Shown here piece by piece: positions 1 to 64,000 of a stretch of DNA of 64,000 nt. The notes under the pieces are model-generated. The model made no database searches. It was not told the origin of the DNA and was given only the letters and a program-made list of their open reading frames with translations. The stretch is from Candidatus Brevefilum sp. GTDB taxonomy: Bacteria; Chloroflexota; Anaerolineae; Anaerolineales; Anaerolineaceae. The first letter of the stretch is position 1. Each line of letters starts with the position of its first letter. The stretch is from positions 24 through 64,023 of the forward strand of contig DAOSSA010000004.1 of NCBI GenBank assembly GCA_035376985.1, written 5' to 3'. A program made the translations under genes and the position numbers.

Positions 1-2
1 AC

Positions 3-239
3 GAAATTGCCCATGAGCTGATGCATAGAGATAAGGATAATTTTGAGAGTAGGGCAATAAAGGAATTAGAAGCGGAAAGTGTTGCTTATGTTGTCTGCAA
101 GCATTTTGGGTTCGAAAGCCTGAATAGCCCTAATTATCTGGCTTTCTTTGAGGTCTCCTCTAAAGAGCTGTTGTCTCACATGGATAAAATTATGAAAACT
201 GCGACCAGAATTATCACTGCGATAAAACCCGTGGCTTGA
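3..239 (+). CDS. 3' part of ArdC/ImmA-like zincin metallopeptidase-domain protein (5' end outside window)
   Basis: The frame is open from position 3: EIAHELMH (HExxH) followed by ELEAESVAYVVCKHFG...NYLA, the typical C-terminal motif of ArdC-type mobile-element proteins. Confidence 0.65.
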   Translation, partial: EIAHELMHRDKDNFESRAIKELEAESVAYVVCKHFGFESLNSPNYLAFFEVSSKELLSHMDKIMKTATRIITAIKPVA

Positions 240-411
240 CAATGTTATAATGGAGTTCTCCATGCGTGGTGAACTCCTATTAATATTTTTGTGCAATGGG
301 TAGTTAAATGAAGACAATCTTGATTTGTGAAATACCCCCTTCTGATATAATTCTTGTTGGTTTAATTAACTAATATTTCCTAATTTATAGAATTAACTAT
401 AATGAGGCATT

Positions 412-999
412 ATGATCTTTGACCTGCTAACTTCTGACAAGCTATTTGATGATGAATTGGAGAAAATTATTAATATCATTGATAATTATCTCAATAGATT
501 GATTAAAATAAAACCTGATGCGGTATTACGAGTTGAAATTGAAGAGGATAAAAATAAAAAGATATGGAAGGGTTATTTTGAGGAGCCCAAAGAACTGGGG
601 AAAGAGGATGTGGTTTATGGACGCATCGAAATTATTCCATTGTTTATTGATTGCGGTTTTCCACTGCAGGTCAAATTGTTCTGTAGTGAACCAAAATACC
701 TCACTTATTGGTCTGGTTTAGAAAATACCTTGTTGAAGAACCTCAATTTGTCTGATGGAAGCCCACCACTCACAAAAAAGCCATGGGATTTAATTCCTGA
801 CCATGCCGATGATCAGACAATCGTAAAATTGTGGCATAAGGGCTATAAAGCTGAAGAAATAGGCTACCGCATTGGAAAAGCTCGCCAAACGGTTTACAAT
901 CGTTTGGGGGAACTTCGAAAAAAGCATGGTGTGAAAATTATTCCTTATGGCAAAACGGTGAAGAACCTTAAAAAACCTCATATTTTTCATAAAAAGTAA
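412..999 (+). CDS. hypothetical protein with C-terminal helix-turn-helix (sigma70 r4/LuxR-like)
   Basis: 195 aa ORF; C-terminal IVKLWHKGYKAEEIGYRIGKARQTVYNRL is HTH-like. Confidence 0.55.
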   Translation: MIFDLLTSDKLFDDELEKIINIIDNYLNRLIKIKPDAVLRVEIEEDKNKKIWKGYFEEPKELGKEDVVYGRIEIIPLFIDCGFPLQVKLFCSEPKYLTYWSGLENTLLKNLNLSDGSPPLTKKPWDLIPDHADDQTIVKLWHKGYKAEEIGYRIGKARQTVYNRLGELRKKHGVKIIPYGKTVKNLKKPHIFHKK

Positions 1000-1084
1000 A
1001 TTCGGTAAATTGACAACGGTAAATTCTATAGATTATCATTGCGGTGTAATTTATTACACCGCTTTTTTATTAGATGAGGTTGGT

Positions 1085-1291
1085 ATGGTAAGACGAATTG
1101 ACGTGACACTCGAACAACATGAGTATTCTGCTTTACTAGAAATGGCAGTTGAAGATTTGCGCAATCCTTCTGACCAACTACGCCATATATTGCGAATGGA
1201 GATAGATAGACGAATGGATAAAATAGAACATCTCAATTTAGGGCAAGATGAAAATTCTGTAAAAAAGAAAAATGAAATTTCAAATGATTAA
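1085..1291 (+). CDS. small putative ribbon-helix-helix/CopG-like DNA-binding protein
   Basis: ATG at 1085 after GAGG; RRIDVTLEQHEYSALLEMAVEDLRNPSDQLRHIL fits a beta-alpha-alpha pattern. Confidence 0.45.
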   Translation: MVRRIDVTLEQHEYSALLEMAVEDLRNPSDQLRHILRMEIDRRMDKIEHLNLGQDENSVKKKNEISND

Positions 1292-1375
1292 ATTGGAAAT
1301 CAAAAAATTGCCGACTTTCTCCAGCCAAGGAATCTCATCGGCAATCTCAATAAACAGCCTACATAGGAGGCTCAT

Positions 1376-3531
1376 ATGAATTATAACACCAATTTACACA
1401 AAAATGAAGATCTCTTCAATGAGATAATTGAGAAATTGCGTCCTGAGCAAGGTCAATCTTGTAAATATCCTGATCATAAAGGTGAATATTGGGTACTTTG
1501 CCCATTTCATGACGATCAGGAGATTGGATCATTCTCGTTTAATACTGAAACATTTAATTGCTTTTCGTGTAACGCTCACGGAAGCCTTTCTGAACTCGGA
1601 AAAAAGTTGGGAATCAACAGCTATTCAAGAATAGAAAGAAAGCCATTTAATGGAATAACATTACAAGAATATTCCGAGGCTAAGAAACTGCCTCTGGATT
1701 TTTTACAGTCCATTCAGGTTTCCCAACGAAAACAGAACGATGTCCCCCAGGTGCACATGCCTTACTTTGATAAGAATGGTAATAAGGTTGGAAACCGTAA
1801 ACGGATATCTTTGGACGGATCACCCCGCTTTATTTGGTCAAAGGGAAGCAAGCCCACCCTCTATGGTCTATCATGGATAGATAAACCATTGCACGATTGC
1901 ATCAAAAATGGAGAGAATATCGACTTTATTATTCTAGTGGAGGGAGAAAGTGATGCTCAAACGCTTTGGTTTCATGATTTTCCAGCACTTGGTGTTCCCG
2001 GTGCAACAATGTGGAAGTCGGAATGGAAAGAATATTTAACCGGTAAAAAGGTATATGTCTGGCAAGAACCGGATGATGGAGGCACACAATTCGTACAGAG
2101 TATAGGTCAAGATATTCCAGAAATTTTGATTTTACGTCCCACTGATGGATTGAAGGATATCAGCGAATATCACGCTGCCGGAAGTAATGTTCCGGAATTA
2201 ATTCAAGCATTGCTGGAATCAGCAGAACCATATTCAAAAATCGTAAACGAAAGATACGTTGAAGAATCAAATGAGATAATCGGAAAGGCATCCCCCGTCT
2301 TTGAAAGTAATGTCTTAGATGAAGTTGTTAGATTATGTAGAGAATTAGGCGTTGTTGGTGAAGAAAGAAACATAAAACTACTTTATTTGGCATTGACATC
2401 AAGAATAACAGATAAGCCAATATCTATTGTTATAAAAGCTGCTTCGAGTGCTGGAAAGTCTTTCATTTTAAAACAGGTGCTAAGATTGTTTCCCCAATCC
2501 GCTTACTATGCGATTTCGTCGATGAGCGAGAAGGCGTTGTTTTATTCACAGGAATCCTTTGAACATCGATTCTTAATATTATTTGAGGAGGCAGGAATAT
2601 CCTCAGAATTCGTCGACTATATTGTTAGGTCACTGCTTAGCGAAGGTTACATAAAACACCTCACAGTTGAAAAAACCGAGTCTGGTATGCAAGACCGGCT
2701 TTTAGGAAAAGAAGGTCCAACAGGGTTCATTACAACGACCACAAAAATTAACTTACATCCAGAAAATGAAACTAGACTGTTATCAATTGATGTTACTGAT
2801 TCACCCGATCAAACAAAAAAAATAATGCTTAGGCATTTGCTACAAATGCTATGGGTAAAAAACCGATCTTGGATATACCAGATAGTATGGTTGCATTTCA
2901 ATTGTGGCTCGAGAGATTTGGAACCAAAGAAGTTATTATTCCATATGCAGAAATTCTCGCTGAAAACACGAATTCATCAGCTATTCGGATGCGTCGAGAT
3001 TTTTCTCTATTGATTAACTTGATAAGTATTCACGTAATAATTTATCAACATCAAAGGGAGAAAGATGAGAATGGCTTTATTATTGCTACGTTAGAGGATT
3101 ATCGAATTATCTATAATCTGACTTCAGATTCAATCAATCAGGCTGCTGAGGGCTCAATTAAACCTACAATTCGTCAGACTGTAAACGCCGTAAGGGAGTT
3201 ATTGCAGGAAGAAAGCAGTGATGAAACCGATCACTTAGGCGAAACAGAACAAAAACCTAAATGGGTTGATAACACCACCTTGGCCAAAAAACTTGGCTTG
3301 AGCACTTCTGCCACGAGTCGGAGGGTTGCAGAGGCTACTGCTTTGGGTTTTCTAGACAACCTGGAATCCAGAAATGGGAAGAGAAAAAGAATTATTCTGG
3401 GAAAAGCAGTTCCAGATGATGAATCTGTTCTTCCTACACCAGATGAGTTAGAAAATAAATGGTTAGCTCTTACCGAATTGCATGCAACAGTGCAACAGTC
3501 ACCAATATTTAGCGAGGACAATGATGAATAA
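1376..3531 (+). CDS. CHC2 zinc finger-Toprim primase fused to P-loop helicase and C-terminal winged helix, split by a -1 frameshift at about 2833-2863 (ORFs 1376-3013 and 2851-3531)
   Basis: CPFHDD...CFSC zinc finger; LVEGESDA and EPDDGG Toprim motifs; Walker A AASSAGKS and Walker B-like FEEAG; the second ORF continues in the -1 frame and ends in an HTH-like segment. Confidence 0.75.
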
Positions 3532-3739
3532 CGAAAATCTCAATTTTAACGGTACAGATATGCTACTTGACGCTCAGGACATTGCTGAGAGATTAAGGGT
3601 TAGCAAGCCTCAGGTTTATCTCATGATGCGCCGAGGTGATTTTCCAGTGGTCAAGATGGGGCGGCTGGTGCGTGCTCGCCAATCGGACATTGAAGAATTT
3701 ATTAATCGAAGCACGTTCTCAATGCGAAGTGGTCCTTAA
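3521..3739 (+). CDS. excisionase/AlpA-like HTH_17 DNA-binding protein
   Basis: LLDAQDIAERLRVSKPQVYLMMRRGDFPVVKMGRLVRARQSDIEEFI; lies directly upstream of the integrase. Confidence 0.8.
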   Translation: MMNNENLNFNGTDMLLDAQDIAERLRVSKPQVYLMMRRGDFPVVKMGRLVRARQSDIEEFINRSTFSMRSGP

Positions 3740-3840
3740 CAATGGGTAATCTCCCCAATGTTATTGGCCTTTTAGTGCTTTGTTTGTTGAGAAAAGAATA
3801 AAGCTAACAGTCAATATATTTTTAATTGAAAGGAGGAAAT

Positions 3841-5010
3841 ATGGCAAGAAAAAGTGGTCAAAATCAGGGTAGTGTCACAAAAAGAAAAAATGGATCTTAT
3901 ATGGTCCAGCTGACTGCAGATGGTAATAGGCTCACCAAGTACTTCAAGACTAAAAAAGAGGCTAATGCCTGGCGAATTGAAACACTGCAAAAAATCCAGA
4001 GCGGATTGTTTTATGCTGGTCCAAGATTGACCTTGTCAGAATATTTTGAGGAATGGCTGGTGGCGCGTAAGGACTCGATTAAACTGAAAACCCTTTACCA
4101 GTACCGACAAATTATCAAGCAACATATTAACCCTGTTCTTGGGAATATCAAGATCAATGAACTGCAGCCTGCAGAGATCCAGGCGTTGTATAATAAGAAA
4201 GTTGAGTCAGGCATTGGGGTGAGGACAGTGGGCTTAATCCATTCTGTCTTGCATTGTGCTTTAAACCATGCGCTTAGATTGGGGATTATTTTTCGCAATC
4301 CTTCTGATGCGGTGTATAAACCAAAAGCCCAAAAAAGAGAAATGGAAGTTCTTGATGAAAACCAGGCAAGGATGCTTCTTATTGCTGCGAAAGGGAAAAG
4401 ACATGAAGCCCTTTATAAACTTGCCATTACAACAGGTCTAAGAAAAGGGGAAATCCTTGGATTAAAATGGGGTGACCTGGATTGGGATACCCATCAACTT
4501 AATGTGCAACGTCAAATTCAAAGAGTGCCTCAAGAAGGCTTAGCCTATTCACAACCCAAAACCGCTGCTGGGCGTCGGATGATTATCTTAGGGTCGGATA
4601 CGATTTTGGCATTAAAGGATCACCAAAAAAGGCAGTGGGTTGAAAGAGAGTTTATGAGGGGTAAGTGGAAGGATCACGACCTGATATTTCCGTCTTCAAT
4701 CGGAACGCCTCTAAGTCAAAGCAACCTCAGTCGTGATTATAAACAACTATTACATGAAGCAAACCTACCGGATATTCGGTTTCATGACTTGCGGCATACA
4801 GCTGCTTCCTTGATGTTGAAACAGGGCATTTCTGTAAAGGTTGTTCAGGAGCGCCTTGGTCATAGTGATGCAGCCATGACCTTGAATGTTTACTCCCATG
4901 TGATCCCAGGTATGCAAAGGGAGGCAGCGGAGAAAATGGATGAAATAACCGCAGTGATTGATATCAGTGAGATGCTTGCTAAAGTGGAGAATCAAAATGG
5001 GTTGCAGTAA
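3841..5010 (+). CDS. int: tyrosine recombinase/integrase
   Basis: Catalytic motifs TGLRKGE, FHDLRH, LGHS and final Y (LNVYSH); N-terminal arm-binding domain; adjacent to a tRNA. Confidence 0.95.
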   Translation: MARKSGQNQGSVTKRKNGSYMVQLTADGNRLTKYFKTKKEANAWRIETLQKIQSGLFYAGPRLTLSEYFEEWLVARKDSIKLKTLYQYRQIIKQHINPVLGNIKINELQPAEIQALYNKKVESGIGVRTVGLIHSVLHCALNHALRLGIIFRNPSDAVYKPKAQKREMEVLDENQARMLLIAAKGKRHEALYKLAITTGLRKGEILGLKWGDLDWDTHQLNVQRQIQRVPQEGLAYSQPKTAAGRRMIILGSDTILALKDHQKRQWVEREFMRGKWKDHDLIFPSSIGTPLSQSNLSRDYKQLLHEANLPDIRFHDLRHTAASLMLKQGISVKVVQERLGHSDAAMTLNVYSHVIPGMQREAAEKMDEITAVIDISEMLAKVENQNGLQ

Positions 5011-16257: not shown

Positions 16258-16884
16258 ATGATGATAAAAACCATCTTCTTTGATTTTGGCGGTGTGATTC
16301 TGAAACAGCCCAATGAGCGCAAGTTGAAACTGTGGAAGAAAGCTCTGGGCGTCAAGGACCATCCTGAGGTTCTGGATATGCTGGAAAACCCGCATGACTC
16401 TCAACTGGTCAAGAACATCTGCCTGGGAAAATTGCCAGAGGATTATTTGTGGACCATGATGGCTGAGAAATGGCACCTGAGACCCGCGGTGATTCGGTTC
16501 TTAAAACGAAGGATGTCCTCGAAACGCCAGATAAACCAACCGATTGTCGATTTTTTGGCGGAACTGCATGGTCAATACCAAATTTCGATTTTAAGTAATG
16601 CGGGCGATCAAACCCGGAGGCTGCTGGAGGATACCTACCAGCTAAAGCGTTATGTGGACGATATCATCATTTCTGCAGAGGAGGGAGTGATTAAACCAGA
16701 TCGGCGCATTTTTGAAATCGCTATGTCACGTTTGGGCACAACGCCTGGGCGTTCACTTCTTTTAGATGACCATCTGCCCAATGTAATGGCCGCACGGGAA
16801 TTTGGCATGCATGCGGTGCATTTTATCAGCTCGCACCAGGCGATTGATACGGTGCGCGTCCACCTGGATGGAAGGCATTCCTGA
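16258..16884 (+). CDS. HAD-family phosphatase
   Basis: FFDFGGVI motif I, LSNA motif II, KPDRRIF motif III, LLDD motif IV. Confidence 0.9.
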
Positions 16885-17549
16885 TGCTGTACCTGGTTGC
16901 GACGCCGATTGGCAACCTGGGTGATATTACACTGCGGGCATTGGACGTGTTGCGTTGTGTAGATCTGATTGCCAGCGAAGATACGCGCAAAACCTCAATT
17001 TTGTTGGGACATTATGATATTCACAAGCCCCAAAAGAGCTATCACGCCTTCAACGAGGAGAAGGTTGTGCCAAAGCTGGTTGACCTGCTTCTGGAAGGGA
17101 AATCGATTGCGGTGGTCTCCAGCGCAGGGACGCCGGGCATCTCTGATCCCGGCTATTCGCTGGTGCAGGCTGCGATTGTGCATGAGATTCCGGTCACAGC
17201 GATACCGGGCCCCAACGCCCTGGTGCTTGCGTTGACCTTATCGGGCTTACCCGGGCACAGTTTTACATATAAGGGCTTCTCGCCACGCAAATCCGCAGCA
17301 CGTCGGCGGTTTATCAGCACTGAAGCGGAATCGCCCCATACTTTGATCTTCTATGAAAGCCCTCACAGGATCCAGGCGTTTCTGGCAGATGCGTTGGCTG
17401 TCCTGGGAGATCGACAGGCAGCGCTGGCTAACGATTTAACCAAGAAGTTTGAATCCCTTCAACGGGGTCGATTGAGCGAACTACTGGAAACATTTAATCA
17501 GGAAGCCCCCCGCGGCGAATACACGGTGGTGATTGAAGGTGCGCGGTAG
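16884..17549 (+). CDS. rsmI: 16S rRNA (cytidine1402-2'-O)-methyltransferase, copy 1
   Basis: [45 protein letters not shown]. Confidence 0.92.
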
Positions 17550-17557
17550 GCGCTTTC

Positions 17558-18313
17558 TCAGAACTTGAAGGGCGAAAAGTTGGTTTCATCGTCGAAAACG
17601 TCGATACCTTCTGTGTGTTTTAACCTGTTAACAACCCGGTAGGTGAGGGGTGTTACGACGATTTCGATACCAAGTTTAAAGATATAATTAGTAATGGTCA
17701 GACTCCAGAACAAGCTCCATGGGAACACACCCAGGGCACTGGCAATTAAGATGAAGGTAAAGGTGTCAAAAGCCTGTCCGATGACACTGCTGCCGATCGT
17801 GCGAGCCCACAGGAATTTCCCTTTGGTACGGATTTTCATCGAAGCCATGACAATGGCATTGGAAAAAGATCCAGCCAGATAGCCTGCCAGGCTAGCCACA
17901 ACGATGGCACCCGAGCTCATGCTCCCCAGTATCTTGTTGAAGTTTTCCTGGCCGACCCTGGTCTGCCAGGTGACCTCTCCGGGAAGCACCTGGACAAACC
18001 AGAACACCAGCGCACTGAAGGCCAGGGCGCCAAAGCCGAGCCAGATAATGCGCCTTGAGCGTTTGAAACCGTAAACTTCGGTCAGAACATCACCAACGAT
18101 ATAGCTGATTGGGAACAGGATTGTCCCGGCGTCAAAGCTGAGAGACAAGTTCCCCAGGCGGGCTCCCCAATCGATGATCTTGGCAGAGGAGGCAATATTG
18201 CTGAGTACCAGTGTAAGGACAAAGATCGTTGTGAGGATGTCCAGATAATGAAAGGATTGTGTTTCGGAGAGAGTGTTTTGTTTTTTCACAGTAGGCTCCG
18301 TTTGAATACTCAA
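17558..18313 (-). CDS. yhhQ: queuosine precursor transporter (YhhQ/VUT family)
   Basis: LFPISYIVGDVLTEVYGFKRSRRIIWLGF and ARTIGSSVIGQAFDT motifs; multiple TM helices. Confidence 0.88.
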   Translation of the reverse strand: MSIQTEPTVKKQNTLSETQSFHYLDILTTIFVLTLVLSNIASSAKIIDWGARLGNLSLSFDAGTILFPISYIVGDVLTEVYGFKRSRRIIWLGFGALAFSALVFWFVQVLPGEVTWQTRVGQENFNKILGSMSSGAIVVASLAGYLAGSFSNAIVMASMKIRTKGKFLWARTIGSSVIGQAFDTFTFILIASALGVFPWSLFWSLTITNYIFKLGIEIVVTPLTYRVVNRLKHTEGIDVFDDETNFSPFKF

Positions 18314-18330: not shown

Positions 18331-19074
18331 ATGCATCATTTCTTTTTAAGCCCGGATGACATCCACGATTTACAGGTCATCTTCCCTGCCCAGGTTTCTC
18401 ACCAAATCAAGCATGTCTTACGCCTGGCGACAGGCGATCGTGTCGCTGTGCTGGACAATTGTGGGTCAATCTACACTGTAGTTCTGCGGAATGAAACTGC
18501 AGGAGGTCAACGCGTTGGTGATATTGTTAGTACTCAAATGGCTACATCCGAACCCCAGGTGCAGATTTCGCTTTTCATTGGACTGTCCAGCCGTGAAAAG
18601 ATGGAGTGGATTTTCCAGAAGGGCACTGAAATTGGTGTGTCTGCTTTTTGCCCTTTTGTTTCTACACGGACATTGGTGAGCAATACCGGATTGACTGAGG
18701 GAAAAATGTCTCGCTGGAAGCGGATCATCCAGGAAGCAGCAGAACAATCCGGGCGTGGAAAGCTGCCGGTGCTGAATGCACCGGAGAAATTGGCTGATTG
18801 CTTGCGTAATGCAACCCAAACGAATGGGCTGTGCCTGCTGGCTTGGGAAGGCTTGCCTGAGGATGGGGCTAACTTAAAGGAAGCACTGCGAGGTTTCACA
18901 GGAGACAAGCTGGCGTTGTTCGTGGGACCAGAAGGCGGCTTTTCTGATGCTGAAGTGGCTTCAGCGCAGGGTGCTGGATGCCAGGTGGTTACCCTGGGCG
19001 CCCGGATTTTTCGAATGGAAACAGCAGCGATTGTTTTTCCGGCCCTGGCTCTTCATGAGCTTGGTCATGTATAA
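18331..19074 (+). CDS. rsmE: 16S rRNA (uracil1498-N3)-methyltransferase
   Basis: HQIKHVLRL, QKGTEIGV, EAAEQSGR, VGPEGGFS, LGARIFRMETAA. Confidence 0.95.
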   Translation: MHHFFLSPDDIHDLQVIFPAQVSHQIKHVLRLATGDRVAVLDNCGSIYTVVLRNETAGGQRVGDIVSTQMATSEPQVQISLFIGLSSREKMEWIFQKGTEIGVSAFCPFVSTRTLVSNTGLTEGKMSRWKRIIQEAAEQSGRGKLPVLNAPEKLADCLRNATQTNGLCLLAWEGLPEDGANLKEALRGFTGDKLALFVGPEGGFSDAEVASAQGAGCQVVTLGARIFRMETAAIVFPALALHELGHV

Positions 19075-20082: not shown

Positions 20083-20813
20083 AAACCCCACTGACCTGGG
20101 TGGTCAATACAATCATTCGGACCATCCTGTATTGCCTGCTTAAAATTGACATATCAGAGATAAAAAAGGTGCCCAAACGTGGTCCGCTGATTCTTGCTGT
20201 TAATCATGTTAATTTTTTGGATGCGCCTGTGCTGATCACCCACATGGGATCACGGGCATTTACAGGGTTTGCCAAACGCGAAACCTGGGATAACCCATTG
20301 ACGGCATTTTTGTTTACCCTGTGGGGCGGAATTCCGATTGATCGTGGGATTGCTGATTTCAATGCTTTCAAAGCGGCTAAAGATGCGTTACTGGTCAAAA
20401 AGCAACTTTTAGCCATCGCTCCGGAAGGTACACGTTCAGGCGACGGTCGTTTGCATCAAGGAAAACCCGGTATCGCCATCCTGGCGAGCAAGGCTGATGT
20501 ACCAATCCTCCCGATGGTCTATTATGGGCACGAAGATATCTTACAAAATCTTCGCCGATTAAAACGGACACCATTTCATGTAAGAGTTGGTAAACCCTTT
20601 CGGTGTAAGTTCTCTGGTCAGGAGAAAAACAAAGAGGTTATGCAAGCCGTAACCGACGCCATCATGCTGGAAATTGCTGACCTGCTGCCTGAGAAATACC
20701 ACGGAGAATATCGGGGAGTTACGATTGACCGTCGAAAGTACCTTGAATATAACGATTCAACTTCGGGGGAGGAGATTCCGCAGGCGCTTGGAGAGCAATT
20801 TTCCCACGCCTAA
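20079..20813 (+). CDS. plsC: 1-acyl-sn-glycerol-3-phosphate acyltransferase
   Basis: NHVNFLD (HxxxxD) and APEGTRS motifs. Confidence 0.88.
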   Translation: MKTPLTWVVNTIIRTILYCLLKIDISEIKKVPKRGPLILAVNHVNFLDAPVLITHMGSRAFTGFAKRETWDNPLTAFLFTLWGGIPIDRGIADFNAFKAAKDALLVKKQLLAIAPEGTRSGDGRLHQGKPGIAILASKADVPILPMVYYGHEDILQNLRRLKRTPFHVRVGKPFRCKFSGQEKNKEVMQAVTDAIMLEIADLLPEKYHGEYRGVTIDRRKYLEYNDSTSGEEIPQALGEQFSHA

Positions 20814-22214
20814 ATTGCGACCGCTTTTATCTTCCACCAGCAGATACTGACCTTGAGGGTGCAGATCTATTTTAGGATTGCGAATATCCCGCCGATCGAT
20901 CCATTGGGCGAGTTGTGAATCATCAAGCTGGGCTTTTCCCCGGATAAATAAGTGACCGAAACGGCTGGCAAATTCATAAGAAGGGTGGAAATTTTCTGAA
21001 ATCCACTGACCGATTTGCATGCCAATCAACTCAAAGGGGAGCGTTTGGAACCTTTCGAGGTAGACCAGAGGAATGAGAAAGATGCCTTCGTGTCGCTTAA
21101 AAAGCTGGAGGTGATACCCGGCGAGGATTTCATCAAGGGCAAATCCATAAGCATCCCAAATCTGTTCACAAATCGCAGACTGAAGATTGAGCGTTGCTGC
21201 TTCAAGCTGGGTGCGAGAAAAGTCGCGGGTGGGGGGCGCCTGAGGTGTTACAGGGATTACGCCTGTTTTTCGTAAACGTGCGCAAAAGAAGCCCGACATG
21301 CCGGTCTGATGCGGCCAGAGTCGCAGAGTATTCTGTAGTGAGGGATGGAAAACCTGGTCTGCATAGGCGGTCAGCCCGGGGACATGGAAGGGTACCCTGC
21401 TGGCGAGATCTTCAACAATCAGGGCGCCGGGGTACAACTTGAGAACCTGGTCAATCACAGCCTCGTTCTCCTCGGGAGCCAGTGAGCAGGTGGCGTAAAC
21501 GATCTGTCCGCCAATCTTAAGGGCGCTCAACCCGCTGATGAGAAGCCGGATTTGCATTTCTTGCAGACGAAGCCGTTCTGAATCGGTGGTTTCCCTGAGG
21601 GGGTGGCTGGGTGTCGGGCGGAGGTTCTCCATGCTGCAGGGGGCATCCAGCAAGATGCTATCAAAAGTCTCGGGATACCACCTGCCAAAGGATTCTCCGG
21701 GAAAATGGGTTACAGCCTGGTTGATGGCGCCCCAATTAGCGATGACGGAGCGTAAAGCGGGGATGCGTCTCTGGCTGGCATCATTGGCGATGATAAAACC
21801 CATATCCTGTGTGCGGTCAACCAGGTGGGTTGTTTTTCCACCGGGTGAGGCGGCTATGTCGAGGATCAACGGTCGCTGTGCCTCAAAATCCAGCAGGCTG
21901 ACCGGAACCATTGAGGCTGCATCCTGCAGGTAATATCCGCCCATGCTGTGTTCTATCGTCATGCCGGGCGAGGTGCTGGCGGATTCGATCAGCCAGGCGT
22001 TGTCACAGAAGGTGATAGGTTTAATTTCCCAGCCGTAACGTTCTGCCAGGGCATGGATCGATGTTGCTGGGTGCGCTTTGAGTGAATTGAGCCGAATACC
22101 GGTGGACAGGGGGGCATCCTGAATTGCCCGGATCTTCTGGAGTTCTTCCTCGCTGAGGATCTCTGAAAAACGTGCCAGGCTTTGGACTAGTTTACTCGCG
22201 CCGGGATCAGCCAT
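20757..22214 (-). CDS. rsmF: RsmF/NOP2-family rRNA cytosine-C5 methyltransferase
   Basis: QDAASM, DIAASPGGKTT, DAPCS (motif IV), YATCSLAPEENE (motif VI), C-terminal RsmF-like domain. Confidence 0.85.
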   Translation of the reverse strand: MADPGASKLVQSLARFSEILSEEELQKIRAIQDAPLSTGIRLNSLKAHPATSIHALAERYGWEIKPITFCDNAWLIESASTSPGMTIEHSMGGYYLQDAASMVPVSLLDFEAQRPLILDIAASPGGKTTHLVDRTQDMGFIIANDASQRRIPALRSVIANWGAINQAVTHFPGESFGRWYPETFDSILLDAPCSMENLRPTPSHPLRETTDSERLRLQEMQIRLLISGLSALKIGGQIVYATCSLAPEENEAVIDQVLKLYPGALIVEDLASRVPFHVPGLTAYADQVFHPSLQNTLRLWPHQTGMSGFFCARLRKTGVIPVTPQAPPTRDFSRTQLEAATLNLQSAICEQIWDAYGFALDEILAGYHLQLFKRHEGIFLIPLVYLERFQTLPFELIGMQIGQWISENFHPSYEFASRFGHLFIRGKAQLDDSQLAQWIDRRDIRNPKIDLHPQGQYLLVEDKSGRNLGVGKLLSKRLRNLLPRS

Positions 22215-23040
22215 TGTGAGCTCCCAGGCTTTTATCAATCAGAAAGACAATCTCGTTTTCGATCTTTATTTCCTGAATGGGCAGGCCTTCAGGCAGGTTG
22301 GAAAAGACCAAATCTCGATGCCTTTGTTGCAGGCTGTGGGTGCCGGAGAGGTCAGTAGCAGGTAAGGAGACAGCCAGTGTTTTAACGTTCAGAGCACTCC
22401 AGAAGGCACGGTTGCATCCGGGTTGACGCTTTTCGAAACGATGCGCCTCTTTGAAGAAAAACGCGAGATCAGCGGCGCCTTCTGGTGGGTTTACGAGGAT
22501 GTCCCTGTTTTCAGCCAGGGGTGTTAATCCGATTTTTGATAGAAAAAGGTTGATAAAGTCCACCCTGGGTTGGATGATATCAAAGGCATGGTAGCGGACT
22601 GAAGCAGGTAGCCCCATCCAGGGGAACGCCAGGGGATGCAAGCCGCAAGCCAGGTCGAAGATCACCTGCGGTTTTCCAGGCGCATGGAAAAGTTGTGGGT
22701 AAAACTCGTCCATAATTGGGATGCGTTCTGCTGTGGAAGCATGCTGAGAGAGCACTTTGAGGCAAAAATTCTTCAACTGCGGTGAATCGAGGGCTAAATC
22801 TTCGATTTTAAACAGTTCTTTTGTCAGGGCAGGATAATCGGGCTGACCCAGGTAGGGTGCGACGATGTTGTGTAATTTCCGCCGAACGGCTTTGAGGGTC
22901 GCTTTTTGTGACCCCTGCTGAAGCGTTTCTTGTCGGACCAGGTCTTCAACGGTGGCCTGATTTAGCCCCAGATGACGGTATTTCTTTGTGCTGAGGATCT
23001 GACCCACAAGCCCCTGGACGAGCTGGTTTTCAACCTTCAT
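22207..23040 (-). CDS. ArmA/Rmt-family 16S rRNA m7G1405-type methyltransferase, divergent paralogue
   Basis: HASTAER, DLACGLHPLAF, YHAFDI, LAFFFK motifs; C-terminal motifs deviate from the family. Confidence 0.8.
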   Translation of the reverse strand: MKVENQLVQGLVGQILSTKKYRHLGLNQATVEDLVRQETLQQGSQKATLKAVRRKLHNIVAPYLGQPDYPALTKELFKIEDLALDSPQLKNFCLKVLSQHASTAERIPIMDEFYPQLFHAPGKPQVIFDLACGLHPLAFPWMGLPASVRYHAFDIIQPRVDFINLFLSKIGLTPLAENRDILVNPPEGAADLAFFFKEAHRFEKRQPGCNRAFWSALNVKTLAVSLPATDLSGTHSLQQRHRDLVFSNLPEGLPIQEIKIENEIVFLIDKSLGAHNG

Positions 23041-23843
23041 TTTGTCACCAAAAAAGCCAGTTCGGTTTGGAAAAGAAACTCCTGGATACCCCAGGGTTTT
23101 TCACTGACCAGCTTTAAAAAATGCTCTTTGTAGAATGAGGACATGCCTTTTTTGCGCCCAGCCAGGCTATGAATAGGAAAGCTGACCAGGATGTGATCCG
23201 CAGGTATGCTCTCCAGCAAACGGTCACCGATAGATTTTTCCATTTGTTCCAAACAGGGGATCGATTTAAGTAAAAAGGCTACCTGGGCTCTTTCGGCGGG
23301 AACCTCAGCTACCAAATCGCAGGACTCAGCCGCGCCGTTGATGTTGAATTGACCAAAAAAAGCATTGACCAATTCCAGCAGATCCAGGTAGATGTCGCAG
23401 GCAAAATACTGTACATGGTCTGCAACGGGCATCCAGGGGAGCGCCAGGGGGTTCATCCCACACGCCAAATCGTTGATGCTGGTGACCGGGGCGATCGGCG
23501 CCAGGCAGGTTTGGAAAAAAGTTTCAATAATGGGCAGGCGTTCTTCAGTGGAGGCATGGGATTGCAGCATCCGCCGGCAGAAATCCTGGGTTTCAGCCGC
23601 ATTGAGCTCTCTGGGGAGATCTTCCAACTGTTGGGTGGCAGCGGCGTAACCTGCTTTATGTTTGAGATAGGCACCGCCAACCTGGTGGAGTTTGTTGCGC
23701 ACAAACTTGACAGCAGCTTTACCTGTCAAACCAGCAGTGATTGCTTCCTGGCTGAGACGCCGAACCAGGCTCGAGGTGATGTGCTTGTATTTAGCCCCCG
23801 AGAGCACTTGGATGACTAACTGCTCGAGCTGTGGGTTACCCAT
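23037..23843 (-). CDS. ArmA/Rmt-family 16S rRNA (guanine1405-N7)-methyltransferase
   Basis: HASTEERL, DLACGMNPLAL, ACDI, FLLKSIPCLEQ, VSFPIHSLAGRKKGM all match RmtB/ArmA/Sgm signatures. Confidence 0.9.
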   Translation of the reverse strand: MGNPQLEQLVIQVLSGAKYKHITSSLVRRLSQEAITAGLTGKAAVKFVRNKLHQVGGAYLKHKAGYAAATQQLEDLPRELNAAETQDFCRRMLQSHASTEERLPIIETFFQTCLAPIAPVTSINDLACGMNPLALPWMPVADHVQYFACDIYLDLLELVNAFFGQFNINGAAESCDLVAEVPAERAQVAFLLKSIPCLEQMEKSIGDRLLESIPADHILVSFPIHSLAGRKKGMSSFYKEHFLKLVSEKPWGIQEFLFQTELAFLVTK

Positions 23844-24933
23844 GGTCGTTCTGCAGCCTTTCTGTGAGCTGGGTCATGAAGCGCAGGTTGTGCAGGGTCG
23901 CCAGGCGGTGATAAAGCCAGTCTCCGGTTTTGAAAAGGTGGTGCAGATAACCCAGGCTGTAGTGCTGGCACACGGGGCAATCGCAATCATCTGATATTGG
24001 TCGATTGACTTTGATGTGTTTTTTATCCTGGAGATAGATATATTCCAGCCAGTCTTCACCCTGCAGGGGCTGACCCGGTGGAATGTTGTAACGCATCAAA
24101 CGGCCGTGTCGGGCATCACGGGTGGGCAAGGCGCAATCAAAGAGGTCATAGCCGAGGCGAAAAGTTTTAACCAGGTTGAGCGGATGCCCGATCCCCAGCG
24201 CGTGCATGGGATAAGTGGAAGGCACCAGCTCTCGAGTCAGTCCGACAATGTCTGTGAGCAATTGTCCCTGGGAATCCAACGGCCAACCGCCATAGCCAAA
24301 GGCGTCAAAGCCGATCTCCAACAAGCCATCTGCGCATTCCTGGCGCAGGTCGGTGTAACCACCGCCTTGAATCACGCCGAAGATCAGGGGGCGGTCTGCA
24401 CCGGAAATTTTACGCTGATCGAGTTGGAGATTGTATTCCTGCTTGCAGCGCTTCGCCCAATCCAGAGTGCGCTTGACACTGATTTCTTGCTCTGCGCGAG
24501 ACGCGTCCACGTGGGTACAGTCATCGAGGCAGATGACCACATCACTGCCGTAACTGATCTGTAATTGGATGCTCTTCTCTGGCGAGAGGAGCAGTTTTCT
24601 GCCCTTGCCTTCGGGACGGAAGAGGATGCCGCGGTCGGTGAGGGTGCCGAACTGGTCGGATTGGTGGATCAGCGAGTATGCCTGGAATCCGCCCGAATCG
24701 GTCACAATCACTTTGTGCCAGTCGGCAAAGTTGTGCAAGCCAGAAAAGGATTGAATGGTACTCGAACCGGGTTTCTGCATCAGGTGAAAGGTGTTCATAA
24801 CCAGGCCTTGAATGCCAATGCTCTCCAAGTCGCGTGAATCCACTGCGCGCACATACCCCAGGGTTGCATCGGGGAGAAAAGCTGGTAAGGCGAGAGCTTT
24901 ATCCCGAATTTGCATTTTTTGTGATGTCTGCAT
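23836..24933 (-). CDS. tgt: tRNA-guanine transglycosylase
   Basis: TDSGGFQ, QGG, FDCALPTRDARHG, zinc site CDCPVC...H. Confidence 0.9.
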   Translation of the reverse strand: MQTSQKMQIRDKALALPAFLPDATLGYVRAVDSRDLESIGIQGLVMNTFHLMQKPGSSTIQSFSGLHNFADWHKVIVTDSGGFQAYSLIHQSDQFGTLTDRGILFRPEGKGRKLLLSPEKSIQLQISYGSDVVICLDDCTHVDASRAEQEISVKRTLDWAKRCKQEYNLQLDQRKISGADRPLIFGVIQGGGYTDLRQECADGLLEIGFDAFGYGGWPLDSQGQLLTDIVGLTRELVPSTYPMHALGIGHPLNLVKTFRLGYDLFDCALPTRDARHGRLMRYNIPPGQPLQGEDWLEYIYLQDKKHIKVNRPISDDCDCPVCQHYSLGYLHHLFKTGDWLYHRLATLHNLRFMTQLTERLQNDHG

Positions 24934-24934
24934 T

Positions 24935-25636
24935 TTAGCGTTTCCTTTGCAGCTTGTTGAGGTTGAGGATCAGGACAAACTCACGCTTCTGACCAGTGAC
25001 CTTTGGCAGGATGTCTGCGATGTGCCCCCGGTAGATCGTTTCTTGCTTGAGGGTCAGGTCGCATGCCAGGAGGATATCCTGGTTCTTCCCAAACACAGAC
25101 TGAACTTCCGTCAGAAGTTTGGTCAGACGGTAAGGCGTGTCCATCAGAATCACCGGGACGGATTCGGATTTATATTTGGCAAGAAAACTTTCGCGATGCT
25201 CGCTTTTTACAGGTGGGAACCCTGCAAATATGAAGCGATCGATGGGAAAATTACTAAGTGAAAGAGCACCCATCAAAGAGGAAGGCCCCGGAACCGGTGA
25301 AATCGAGATGCCCGCCTGGTAGCACAGGTCGAGCAGGTGCCGCCCCGGGTCGGCAAAAACAGGCGTGCCGGCATCTGAGATAATGGCCATAGATTCGCCC
25401 TGGGCCAGGCGCAGGACGATGTGATCCGATTCCTCGGATTCATTGTGTTCGTTTAAGGTGAGCAGTTCGTTTTCTACACCCAGTTGACGGAGCAGGCGGC
25501 TCCCCTGGCGGACTTCTTCACAAATGATGGCATCGACCTGCTTGAGGATATCCAGAGCGCGCAACGTAATGTCACGGGGGTTGCCAATGGGCGTTGCAAT
25601 GATGTACAAAATGCCCAATTTTTCTGTGTGTGTCAT
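24935..25636 (-). CDS. rsmI: RsmI-family methyltransferase, copy 2
   Basis: LYIIATPIGNPRDITLRAL, SDAGTPVFADPG, PVPGPSS, MDTPYRL. Confidence 0.88.
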   Translation of the reverse strand: MTHTEKLGILYIIATPIGNPRDITLRALDILKQVDAIICEEVRQGSRLLRQLGVENELLTLNEHNESEESDHIVLRLAQGESMAIISDAGTPVFADPGRHLLDLCYQAGISISPVPGPSSLMGALSLSNFPIDRFIFAGFPPVKSEHRESFLAKYKSESVPVILMDTPYRLTKLLTEVQSVFGKNQDILLACDLTLKQETIYRGHIADILPKVTGQKREFVLILNLNKLQRKR

Positions 25637-28501: not shown

Positions 28502-29836
28502 TCAGACGAGTTTGCCGATCAGGTCGTAGGTGATTGCACCATGGATCTTCACTGCCACTATTTCGCCAATCGGGGCAATTCCTTCAACTAAAACCAGGCC
28601 GTCAATTTCGGGCGCATCCCGGTAGGATCGTCCAATTGAGATTTGGTTTTCATCGTCAATGCCTTCAATAATGACATCCAGCACCTTATCGATGAAGGAT
28701 TGATTGCGCGCCAAAGAGATCTCAGCTTGAATTTGCATGAGTTGTTCAACCCGTTTGGCTTTGGCATCTTCTGAGATCGGGTCGTCCAGGGGCTCGGCAG
28801 GAGCACCAGGTTCAAAGGAATAGGCAAACGTTCCCAGGTGATCAAAACGCTGGGCTTGGACGAAGTCCACCAACCTTTGGAAGGCAAGGTCATCCTCACC
28901 GGGAAAACCGACGATCATCGTTGTTCTCAGGGCAATATCTTCGATTTCAGCACGGATGCGGGCAAGTGCCTGCGAAACAGCTTCAATATCAGATGGGCGG
29001 CGCATCGCACGCAGGACGGCCGGGTCAGCGTGCTGGAGGGGGATATCCAGGTAGGAAAGGATTTGTGCTTCAGTTTTCATCAACTGGATTAGATTGTCTG
29101 TCACATAACCTGGAAAGGCATATAACAAACGGATCCAGGGAATGTGGGGGACTGCCCTGAGCAGAGCTTCTAACAACCGGGTTAACCCGTCCTGCATCCC
29201 CAAATCGTGCCCATAATCTGTGGTGTCCTGGGCGATGAGAATGATCTCCTTGATTCCACGATCCTGTAAAGCTTTTGCGTCCTTAATAATTTCATCGATT
29301 GGGCGGCTGATCAGATTGCCTTTGATCAATGGAATCAAGCAATAGGAACACGATCTACGGCAGCCATCAGCGATTTTTAGATAGGCGCTGCCACCCTGGA
29401 TAGCTACTCGGTGTGTTTCAACTGGACCTGAAGTTATTTGAGAGAGATGTAAATAAGGTTTCTTCCTGTCATGCCGATTGACTTGATCAACGACATCCAG
29501 GATGTCCATCCAGTGCCTGGTGCCCAGGATCCCGTCCAAGCCGGGCACAGAATCGAGTAATTCCTGACGGTGCAGTTCGGGCATGCACCCGGCAGCGATC
29601 AATTTCTGCCAGGGCTGTTTTTCAGTGGCCAGGCTCCTGAGTATTGAGATAGCTTCCCGGCGGGCTGCTGTCAAAAATCCGCAGGTGTTGACAATCAGGT
29701 ATTCCGATTTTTGAGGGATACTGGAAGCGACCAATCCACGCTGATTCAACAACCGGGACATCGATTCTGAATCCACCAAGTTTTTGGGACAGCCCAGGGA
29801 AACCAGGTGATAAGTCCCTTTAGCCTGTTTAGTCAT
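28502..29836 (-). CDS. rimO: ribosomal protein S12 methylthiotransferase
   Basis: SLGCPKNLVDSE, NTCGF, radical SAM CRRSCSYC, C-terminal TRAM domain (GRSYRDAPEIDG). Confidence 0.95.
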   Translation of the reverse strand: MTKQAKGTYHLVSLGCPKNLVDSESMSRLLNQRGLVASSIPQKSEYLIVNTCGFLTAARREAISILRSLATEKQPWQKLIAAGCMPELHRQELLDSVPGLDGILGTRHWMDILDVVDQVNRHDRKKPYLHLSQITSGPVETHRVAIQGGSAYLKIADGCRRSCSYCLIPLIKGNLISRPIDEIIKDAKALQDRGIKEIILIAQDTTDYGHDLGMQDGLTRLLEALLRAVPHIPWIRLLYAFPGYVTDNLIQLMKTEAQILSYLDIPLQHADPAVLRAMRRPSDIEAVSQALARIRAEIEDIALRTTMIVGFPGEDDLAFQRLVDFVQAQRFDHLGTFAYSFEPGAPAEPLDDPISEDAKAKRVEQLMQIQAEISLARNQSFIDKVLDVIIEGIDDENQISIGRSYRDAPEIDGLVLVEGIAPIGEIVAVKIHGAITYDLIGKLV

Positions 29837-61944: not shown

Positions 61945-62252
61945 CTCCTTGTTTGATTACCACGTTTGGAGTAATACGATCTAAAGAGTGGCTGAATGAT
62001 AACAAAGGGTTCAAGGACAAAACATGACCCATTACGAGATTATCTGAAAATAATATCACCCTCAAGGTGTAAAGGTGTGTTTTCATTTCTCCTAACAAAT
62101 AAGTTTCTTATATCATAACCGTGATTTTTAACTTATTGCATACTCCGCTTGATGCCATACAGTGAACCTGGTGCAAAGCGTGTACTTACGAGTTGAATCC
62201 AGGTCATAAAATAATGTTTCTCTAATTTTGTTGTGATACAATTAATGCAATT

Positions 62253-63200
62253 ATGAATACAAAGAATGAGAACCAATATCAATCAGATGGTGGTCGCTTG
62301 CCAATAATTATTAAAGAATCAAGTTTGATGTATCAAACTAAAGTTGCGATTGGTCATGAAAAAACCTGTGATTGCAAACCCAATCATCTAAATTGTATGA
62401 CGGGTAAGGAATGGATTAAAAGCCAACTTGGCGTGTGGCAGTTTTATTACGAGGGACGAGACATTCGAGATAAAAACCTTCATCCGGCTACATTTCCAAT
62501 TTCTCTATCAAAAAGAGTAATTGAACTGTTTTCTCATGAAGGAGAATTGGTGCTTGACCCATTTGTGGGAAGTGGAACCACGTTATTGGCAGCACAAGAT
62601 TTAAACCGAAATGCTGTTGGGTTTGATTTGCAAGACGATTACCTTGAACTTTGCCAGAAAAGGTTGGTCAATAATAATTTATTCAATAATTCTCAGCAGA
62701 TTGCCATTCAAGATGACGCCATGAATATTGATCAATACTTTGATCAAGAAACAATAAAATTAATTTGGACGTCACCCCCATATTCGAATTTATTAAATCG
62801 AAAACGAAAAAACAAATCACGCCGGGGTGATGAGAGAAACAATGAGCAATTTGGAAAGGTAGAACAATATTCGCAGGATCCACGTGACTTAGGAACAATG
62901 CCATTAAAACAATACACTCAAAAGATGGGTGATATATTCGAGAGATTGTTACCATTGCTTAAACCAAAAGGGCATTGTGTCATCAATGTTCCTGACATGT
63001 GGTGGGAAAACGAGAGAATCACGATCCATATTGCGCTGGTCGAAGAGTTGCGAAGACGAGGTTTTGAATTACGAAATACTATCATCTGGGATAGAACAAA
63101 TATTGTAAACCGAATCGGGATTTTTGGTTGGCCATCCAATTATATAACCATGGGAACAACCTTTGAATATTTGCTCGATTTTTGGCGCCCTCCTAATTAA
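62253..63200 (+). CDS. site-specific DNA methyltransferase, probably N4-cytosine
   Basis: HPATFP, LDPFVGSGTT (motif I) preceding WTSPPY (motif IV). Confidence 0.88.
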   Translation: MNTKNENQYQSDGGRLPIIIKESSLMYQTKVAIGHEKTCDCKPNHLNCMTGKEWIKSQLGVWQFYYEGRDIRDKNLHPATFPISLSKRVIELFSHEGELVLDPFVGSGTTLLAAQDLNRNAVGFDLQDDYLELCQKRLVNNNLFNNSQQIAIQDDAMNIDQYFDQETIKLIWTSPPYSNLLNRKRKNKSRRGDERNNEQFGKVEQYSQDPRDLGTMPLKQYTQKMGDIFERLLPLLKPKGHCVINVPDMWWENERITIHIALVEELRRRGFELRNTIIWDRTNIVNRIGIFGWPSNYITMGTTFEYLLDFWRPPN

Positions 63201-63303
63201 TCCATTGATTATGGTGATAAATGATTAATGAAGATGAATTCCCGGTTATTTTTTTGTTGATCAAAAAGTATTCTATCAAGCTGAACCTGCCTGGGGTAAT
63301 TTG

Positions 63304-64000
63304 ATGAAAATCTATTCGAAAGAAACGCTTATCGAAGAATTAGTAAACATCCGAAACATGGGTTGGATACCCAATGCGAGATGGGGCAATGTGGGCGGCA
63401 TCGGCAACACGCTTGAAGATCTGTTGGGGATTGAGGAAAATAATCTACCGATTCCTAACGCCGCTGAATGGGAGTTGAAATGTCAGAGAGCAAAATCAAC
63501 GGCATTAATGACTCTTTTTCACATGGAACCATCTCCCAGGGTGTTTAAGTTTGTTCCACAAGTTCTATTGCCAAATTATGGTTGGGAGCATCAGGAAGCC
63601 GGAAAAAAACATAGTAAAGATGAGATGAGTTTTAGACAAACCATAAGCGGTCATCAAAGAAGTGATCGAGGCTTTTCTATTAAAGTTGACCGAGAAAAAC
63701 GAAAGATCAGTGTTTCATTTGATAGTAACAGCGTTGATGGGCGCCATGGAGATTGGTTAAAATCTGTTGGTGATCGAATTGGTTTCGGTGAATTGAACCC
63801 TCAACCTTATTGGGGGTTTGATGATTTAAGAAACAAGGCAGGGACGAAGTTATTAAATTGTTTCTTTATCCGGGCTGAGACGAAAAAGATAAAAAACCAG
63901 GAATATTTCTATTATTCAACAATTATGGTGTTAGAAGAATTTGATGTCGATGGCTTGATTACTGGCTTAGAACAGGGATTTGTTTACGTTGATTTTGATG
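63304..64000 (+). CDS. MvaI/BcnI-family type II restriction endonuclease (3' end outside window; absent from the ORF track)
   Basis: MKIYSKETLIEEL..., GGIGNTLEDLLGIEENNLPIPNAAEWELK, LMTLFHMEP, SFRQTI, YWGFDDL.NK...KL.NCF. Confidence 0.85.
   Translation, partial: MKIYSKETLIEELVNIRNMGWIPNARWGNVGGIGNTLEDLLGIEENNLPIPNAAEWELKCQRAKSTALMTLFHMEPSPRVFKFVPQVLLPNYGWEHQEAGKKHSKDEMSFRQTISGHQRSDRGFSIKVDREKRKISVSFDSNSVDGRHGDWLKSVGDRIGFGELNPQPYWGFDDLRNKAGTKLLNCFFIRAETKKIKNQEYFYYSTIMVLEEFDVDGLITGLEQGFVYVDFD

Follow-up and report, generated by a model that had tools for sequence, protein, structure and literature searches.

Almost all that is known of the Arm/Rmt methyltransferases concerns the pan-aminoglycoside resistance that they cause, and their natural role outside the antibiotic producers is unclear. 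The structure of RmtC bound to the 30S subunit revealed that K20, Y21, R50 and H54 dock the enzyme and that Y60 stacks bases (PMC10288597). In the same work K204 was found to be the universally conserved lysine that contacts N7 of G1405, the substitutions K204A, K236E, R241E and M245A each abolished RmtC activity, and leucine was given as a natural substitute for Met245 (PMC10288597). S-adenosylmethionine (SAM) is contacted in RmtC by R111, D160 and D188 (10.1101/712810). Here we describe two neighbouring genes of the Arm/Rmt/Sgm (FmrO) family, designated P1 and P2, in a 64,000 nucleotide stretch of Candidatus Brevefilum sp. DNA (assembly GCA_035376985.1, contig DAOSSA010000004.1, positions 24 to 64,023), which is hereafter called the window. 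P2 (22207..23040, minus strand, 277 amino acids), identified from its open reading frame (ORF), PF07091 and an AlphaFold2 model, is a variant member that we term type B. P1 (23037..23843, minus strand, 268 amino acids), identified from its ORF and PF07091, is a canonical, or type A, member. The explanation that we favour, with moderate confidence, is that P2 would be an active, non-redundant methyltransferase of the decoding centre with a role contingent on type A.

Its domain, its fold and its SAM site place P2 in the FmrO family. P2 scored 122.3 bits against PF07091 (FmrO), for which the gathering threshold is 27 and P1 scored 159 bits, and it covered profile positions 4-220 of 255, the C-terminal part fitting poorly. 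Against NF000466, the m7G1405 equivalog model, P2 scored 151.2 bits and P1 208.7 bits, both below the cut-off of 250, and P2 scored far below every RmtA-H exception model. The AlphaFold2 model of P2 (pLDDT 93.3) showed a helical N1/N2 domain and a class I SAM methyltransferase domain. Its best PDB matches by Foldseek were Sgm, RmtC, RmtB, RmtF and ArmA, with Sgm first (TM 0.81/0.86); the query-normalised TM values to Sgm, RmtC, RmtB and RmtF were 0.73-0.81 over ~265-290 alignment columns. P1 and P2 shared 34% identity over their full length, and they were the only FmrO genes found in the 2.35-Mb genome (98% complete).

The residues of P2 were assigned to those of RmtC by a hidden Markov model alignment to 8GHU, with residue roles taken from PMC10288597 and 10.1101/712810. 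This revealed P2 to have retained the equivalents of RmtC K20, Y21, R50, H54, Y60, R111, D160, D188 and K204. The docking residues K20 and Y21 of the N1 domain lie in the P2 motif KKYRH (22972..22986, minus strand) as K20 and Y21, and R50 and H54 correspond to R53 and H57 of RRKLH (22870..22884, minus strand), which is followed by Y63 at the position of Y60. R106 of the HASTAER motif (22723..22743, minus strand) corresponds to R111 of RmtC, which binds the SAM carboxylate, and DLACG (22642..22656, minus strand), with invariant D129 and C132, is SAM motif I. Two segments were changed. The first, K197-E-A-H-R-F-E-K-R205 (22426..22452, minus strand), was located by translation and the RmtC alignment (8GHU) and spans the equivalents of RmtC K204 to Q212, including the T207 and R211 positions; T207 is replaced by H200, R211 by K204 (Q in other genera) and Q212 by R205. 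The second, SLPATDLSGTHSL (22330..22368, minus strand), aligned with Loop237-246 of RmtC in 8GHU and is one residue shorter, with K236 replaced by T229, R241 by T234 and M245 by L237. The corresponding segments of P1 are KSIPCLEQ, compared to KEAHRFEK in P2, and SFPIHSLAGRKKGM, compared to SLPATDLSGTHSL. An earlier note on this DNA had described P2 as keeping HAST.ER and DLACG and changing K-x-L-P-x-L-E and SFP..SL.GR.KGM, both of which P1 keeps; all of these motifs were located as it described. P2 should not be filed as a G1405-N7 methyltransferase, because it scored below the NF000466 cut-off and two of the sequence features that define the m7G1405 enzymes were absent: KEAHRFE stood in place of the canonical K-x-[IL]-P-x-L-E segment after β4, and T229, T234 and L237 stood in place of the basic residue 236, Arg241 and Met245 of the GR.KGM loop.

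An exhaustive search recovered ~1,300 members of the FmrO family among 50%-identity representatives, and these fell into three motif types. Type A, the canonical type with K.[IL]PCLEQ and SLGGR.KGM, included P1, Sgm, RmtB and RmtC. Type B, which included P2, had FFKEAHRFE.R and a loop one residue shorter, and type C had FKMYHCLE.R..GAG. In a maximum-likelihood tree type B formed one clade (SH-aLRT 86). Type C was its sister (SH-aLRT 98), and every type A sequence, those of the Anaerolineae included, lay elsewhere in the tree, although long-branch effects are possible. On this sequence evidence type B is a distinct, uncharacterised clade of the Arm/Rmt/Sgm (FmrO) family, and its signature, as read from the alignments, is the KEAHR motif together with the shortened loop. 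An origin of P2 as a recent tandem duplicate of the local type A gene was rejected on the grouping of type B with type C in the tree, with the same reservation about long-branch effects.

The sister clade, type C, shares with type B a His at K+3 and an Arg at K+8; it differs in having a full-length loop with Arg and in lacking Glu at K+1 and Arg at K+4. The setting also differs, as type C is the only FmrO of its genome, adjoins a TlyA-like gene and has no Tgt paralogue close by. An example (L178:6001-6813; GCA_028281495.1, JANQJU010000033.1) is the sole FmrO gene of a 9.7-Mb genome and is flanked by parB and gloB-like genes, with a TlyA-like (S4 + FtsJ) gene just upstream of it. Type C is also uncharacterised, and one representative is named as Myxococcota.

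Conservation was compared between 112 type B sequences from several genera and 130 Chloroflexota type A sequences. In type B the residues K197, E198, H200, R201 and R205 were 100% conserved, giving the motif K-E-A-H-R-x-E-x-R. The same positions in type A held K (100%), T/S, P (97%), C (87%) and V/L/I respectively; the type A consensus was K-[TS]-[IL]-P-C-L-E-Q, with the L after C at 97%. The catalytic lysine K197, equivalent to RmtC K204, was present in 112/112 type B sequences, as were R106, D154 and D180, the equivalents of the SAM-contacting R111, D160 and D188. At the docking positions, in RmtC numbering, Y21, H54 and Y60 were invariant, K20 was K in 110/112 and R50 was R or K throughout. 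The loop was more variable: T or S at the Arg241 position was a feature of the window's genus, and other type B sequences had R, K, Q or H there. This corrects one detail of the earlier note: the loss of Arg241 (T234) was specific to the window's genus, and the change of the loop that holds across type B is its shortening by one residue.

More than 120 clusters of P2 orthologues were found at 58-74% identity, some of them named Brevefilum or Chloroflexi. The altered motifs recurred in all orthologues examined, so the differences of P2 are not chance or sequencing noise, and the conservation in orthologues of which the earlier note had made a check was thus found. P2 had an intact frame in every genome examined. 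Its ratio of nonsynonymous to synonymous substitution (dN/dS; pairwise Nei-Gojobori, ten genome pairs) was 0.06-0.22; for the same pairs the values were 0.11-0.37 for P1, 0.09-0.18 for the RsmF-type gene downstream of P2 and 0.04-0.15 for Tgt2, the gene preceding P1. P2 is intact and under selection. The relaxed selection that the earlier note had allowed for was not borne out, since the P2 values were at or below those of P1. Taken as sequence evidence, the invariant new residues E198, H200, R201 and R205 indicate a selected new surface.

P1 and P2 lie in an operon whose minus-strand order, from head to tail, is RsmI2, Tgt2, P1, P2 and RsmF. RsmI2 (24935..25636, minus strand), a second RsmI-type (C1402 2′-O) methyltransferase at the head of the operon, Tgt2 (23836..24933, minus strand), a second, divergent tRNA-guanine-transglycosylase paralogue that overlaps P1 by 8 nt, and the RsmF-type m5C methyltransferase (20757..22238, minus strand, with a probable start ATG at 22214) were all assigned by profile matches. 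The RsmF-type gene was the sole RsmB/F homologue of the genome. The junctions from RsmI2 to RsmF are a 1-nt spacer, ATGGGTAA, ATGA and ATGGCTGA; ATGA is the overlap of the P1 stop and the P2 start, and ATGGCTGA that of the P2 stop and the rsmF ATG. The spacer of one nucleotide and the overlapping junctions point to translational coupling of the five genes.

Genes for the modification of the translation apparatus were unusually clustered around this operon. Two RsmI-type genes lie within 9 kb, the divergent copy heading the operon and the other at 16884-17549 (plus strand). RsmI2 was present in the window's family and in genome G048, but the module of most other Anaerolineae does not include it. 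A Vut_1/YhhQ-type transporter (17558-18313, minus strand), of a family that imports queuosine precursors, was also found, and RsmE (18331-19074, plus strand) and a RimO/MiaB-type radical-SAM enzyme (28502-29836, minus strand) flank the operon. The G+C content was 0.37-0.39 at window positions 1-4000 and 62001-64000 compared to ~0.50 elsewhere.

The distribution of the two types was followed in a one-genome-per-species scan and in two evenly drawn sets of 400 genomes, one from the class and one from the phylum. The order RsmI2-Tgt2-P1-P2-RsmF was seen in 29/29 same-genus loci retrieved, and in the one-genome-per-species scan the module Tgt2-A-B-RsmF, the usual setting of type B, was also encoded in Anaerolinea, Bellilinea, Leptolinea, Longilinea, Levilinea and Ornatilinea. 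In the two 400-genome samples type B was confined to a few families of the Anaerolineae, namely the GTDB families f1, f66 and, via G048, f13; both types were retained across at least three GTDB families. With all sets pooled, type A stood alongside type B in 56/56 type B genomes. Type B alone was found in none of these 56, and 31/31 retrieved single-copy Chloroflexota genes were type A, most of them adjoining a Tgt2-type gene. Type B adjoined rsmF in 67/70 assessable loci and type A adjoined type B in 52/69; where a B-RsmF locus had no adjoining A, the genome still had exactly two FmrO genes.

One genome, G645, a congener of three genomes that bear type B, encoded RsmI2-Tgt2-A-RsmF with no type B gene or remnant (locus L192, G645:C21:6400-17300). 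This is a clean loss of type B. As type B was never found without type A and yet can be lost, its role is suggested to be conditional on type A. As a natural knockout, G645 would also serve well in comparisons of rRNA modification maps.

The favoured explanation for P2 as an active, type A-dependent enzyme can be set out along the RmtC model. P2 would dock on the 30S subunit through an RmtC-like N1 surface at the junction of helices 44 and 45 (h44/h45), and it would bind SAM as RmtC does and use the same active-site lysine for catalysis. That the residues for cofactor binding, catalysis and docking are invariant speaks for an active enzyme directed at the 30S subunit. Two elements that open h44 and position the target, namely the segment after β4 and the equivalent of Loop237-246, appear to be rebuilt; the new residues are invariant and the distortion loop is remodelled, which argues for a changed opening of h44 or a changed presentation of the base or atom. 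The rebuilt RNA-contact surface suggests a job other than the known methylation of G1405. P2 probably does something that P1 does not, and its methyl group may go to a different atom or nucleotide at the top of h44; another possibility is that its substrate is h44 premodified by P1, by the Tgt paralogue or by both, and that it acts in concert with RsmF.

Several observations weigh against this explanation. Both strands at the top of h44 were identical in genomes with two, one and no FmrO genes; the 5′ strand was GTCACGTCATGG, and G1405 was present in all genomes compared. No new target was therefore visible in the rRNA, h44 being the same with and without the module. Outside the window's genus, many type B sequences carry R or K where RmtC has Arg241 and L or M where it has Met245, so methylation of G1405 by type B could still occur. 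Additionally, the function of type B is dispensable, as G645 lost the gene cleanly.

A separate feature was seen in the 16S rRNA of this genome. The 16S gene at G000:C15:2616-2638, outside the window, has an A at E. coli position 1409 (GTCAAGTCATGG), where 28/28 relatives with a recovered 16S have C; G1491 is unchanged. The resulting A1409-G1491 mismatch, which is either real or an assembly error, lies in the aminoglycoside-binding site.

A bolder account, which we hold only tentatively and consider possible at low probability, takes Tgt2, type A, type B and RsmF as the steps of one pathway that would give the top of h44 a compound modification, with type B acting at other than N7 of G1405. 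The target of type B would then be a different atom or nucleotide, which it would methylate only once type A has acted on G1405, once the Tgt paralogue with its GGWP pocket has swapped a base, or once both have done so. If this were true, type B would represent a new catalytic specificity in the Rmt fold and would belong to an rRNA base-exchange pathway for which no precedent has been described.

Analysis of Tgt2 revealed a Pfam score of 311 bits compared to 523 for the canonical tgt (G000:C7:61285-62343). The zinc site, D156, Q203 and the catalytic Asp residues (DSGGFQ, DLFDC) are all present in Tgt2; the hairpin at the N terminus is absent, and GGWPLDS replaces GGLSVGE in the base pocket. 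Tgt2-type genes adjoin type A FmrO genes across the Chloroflexota. The best plasmid matches of Tgt2 (43-51% identity) were the tgt genes that adjoin rmtG, rmtB2 and rmtE2 in plasmids of clinical origin. A 105-amino acid ORF downstream on pMY458-rmtE was considered as a truncated type B gene beside rmtE2 and was rejected, as it had no similarity to P2. P1 and RmtE2 were only 32% identical.

We regard it as unlikely that P2 is a same-site isozyme, making m7G1405 on a different state of the substrate, such as an earlier assembly intermediate or an h44 that already carries m5C1407 or Cm1402, and so keeping the methylation stoichiometric. Such an enzyme would be expected to have the catalytic lysine, the SAM contacts and the docking residues of N1 that P2 preserves, and also the R/K and L/M residues of many type B loops outside the window's genus, leucine being a natural replacement of Met245 (PMC10288597). 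In the window's genus, however, T or S stands at the Arg241 position, and RmtC loses its activity through R241E. The newly invariant residues beside the catalytic lysine indicate that the surface of the active site is altered, and an isozyme would mean that two enzymes for one methyl group have been retained across families.

It is improbable that P2 is a non-catalytic partner or regulator that binds the 30S subunit, P1 or RsmF and steers or restrains what they do. Such a role would fit the absence of type B genomes without type A, the tight linkage to rsmF and the altered RNA-distorting loop. Pseudo-enzymes normally lose cofactor or catalytic residues, however, and the equivalents of R111, D160, D188 and K204 were 100% conserved; the sister type C is the sole FmrO of its genome, and when the module is split type B leaves type A and stays with rsmF. 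We know of no heterodimeric Rmt enzyme. The earlier note had proposed either neofunctionalisation or a partner of the canonical copy. Divergence to a distinct, selected function was supported, but the partner version is disfavoured because the SAM contacts and the lysine are invariant, type C is a sole FmrO and type B remains with rsmF.

Methylation of a different RNA, such as tRNA or 23S rRNA, perhaps together with the Tgt paralogue, is similarly doubtful. The Tgt-family enzyme in the same operon and the rebuilt substrate-contact loops would agree with it; the N1 docking residues K20, Y21, H54 and Y60, on the other hand, are invariant or nearly so, with R50 as R or K. Type B is also linked most tightly to rsmF, which encodes an enzyme of 16S h44, and the gene that accompanies the Tgt paralogue, throughout the phylum as well as on plasmids, is type A rather than type B. 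Decay of P2 as a duplicate under relaxed selection, to which its scores below P1 on the Pfam and NCBIfam models might point, is hardly credible and is refuted by its dN/dS and the invariance of its motif, along with the intact frames and the confident structure model.

The locus provides a chromosomal, vertically inherited setting for this family, in which a canonical and a variant member are encoded with a Tgt paralogue, RsmI and RsmF, and the enzyme families of the module all act at or near the decoding centre. Identification of the type B target would test how the Rmt scaffold picks its nucleotide, might bring a new rRNA modification to light and would show how bacteria tolerate m7G1405 without the fitness cost of interference with RsmI and RsmF. 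Resistance annotation needs care, as type B proteins are labelled '16S rRNA (guanine(1405)-N(7))-methyltransferase' and lack the defining motifs of that enzyme.

Among the described systems, the best sequence match of P2 was Sgm of Micromonospora zionensis (3LCU/3LCV; E 1e-30, profile 189 bits). Sgm and P2 have in common the N1/N2 and class I methyltransferase domains, HxST.ER, D.ACG and the catalytic lysine; Sgm has KTLPCLE and SLGQRSKGM, whereas P2 has KEAHRFE and a loop that is one residue shorter and without Arg or KGM. Compared to Sgm and the producer-type m7G1405 enzymes Kgm and FmrO, P2 is encoded by a non-producer, in a housekeeping operon and with a canonical copy adjoining. In contrast to RmtC (8GHU, 30S-bound) and the acquired ArmA and RmtA-H, P2 is not on a mobile element. 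The searchable literature on FmrO with Tgt and on G1405 enzymes of Chloroflexi yielded only a passing mention, in Nosrati 2019 (10.1101/712810), of homologues from the same phylum and family; that paper has no type A/B split, no operon and no altered motifs. G1405 methylases interfere with RsmF or RsmI (PMC3923132), and the tight linkage of type B to rsmF fits with this interference.

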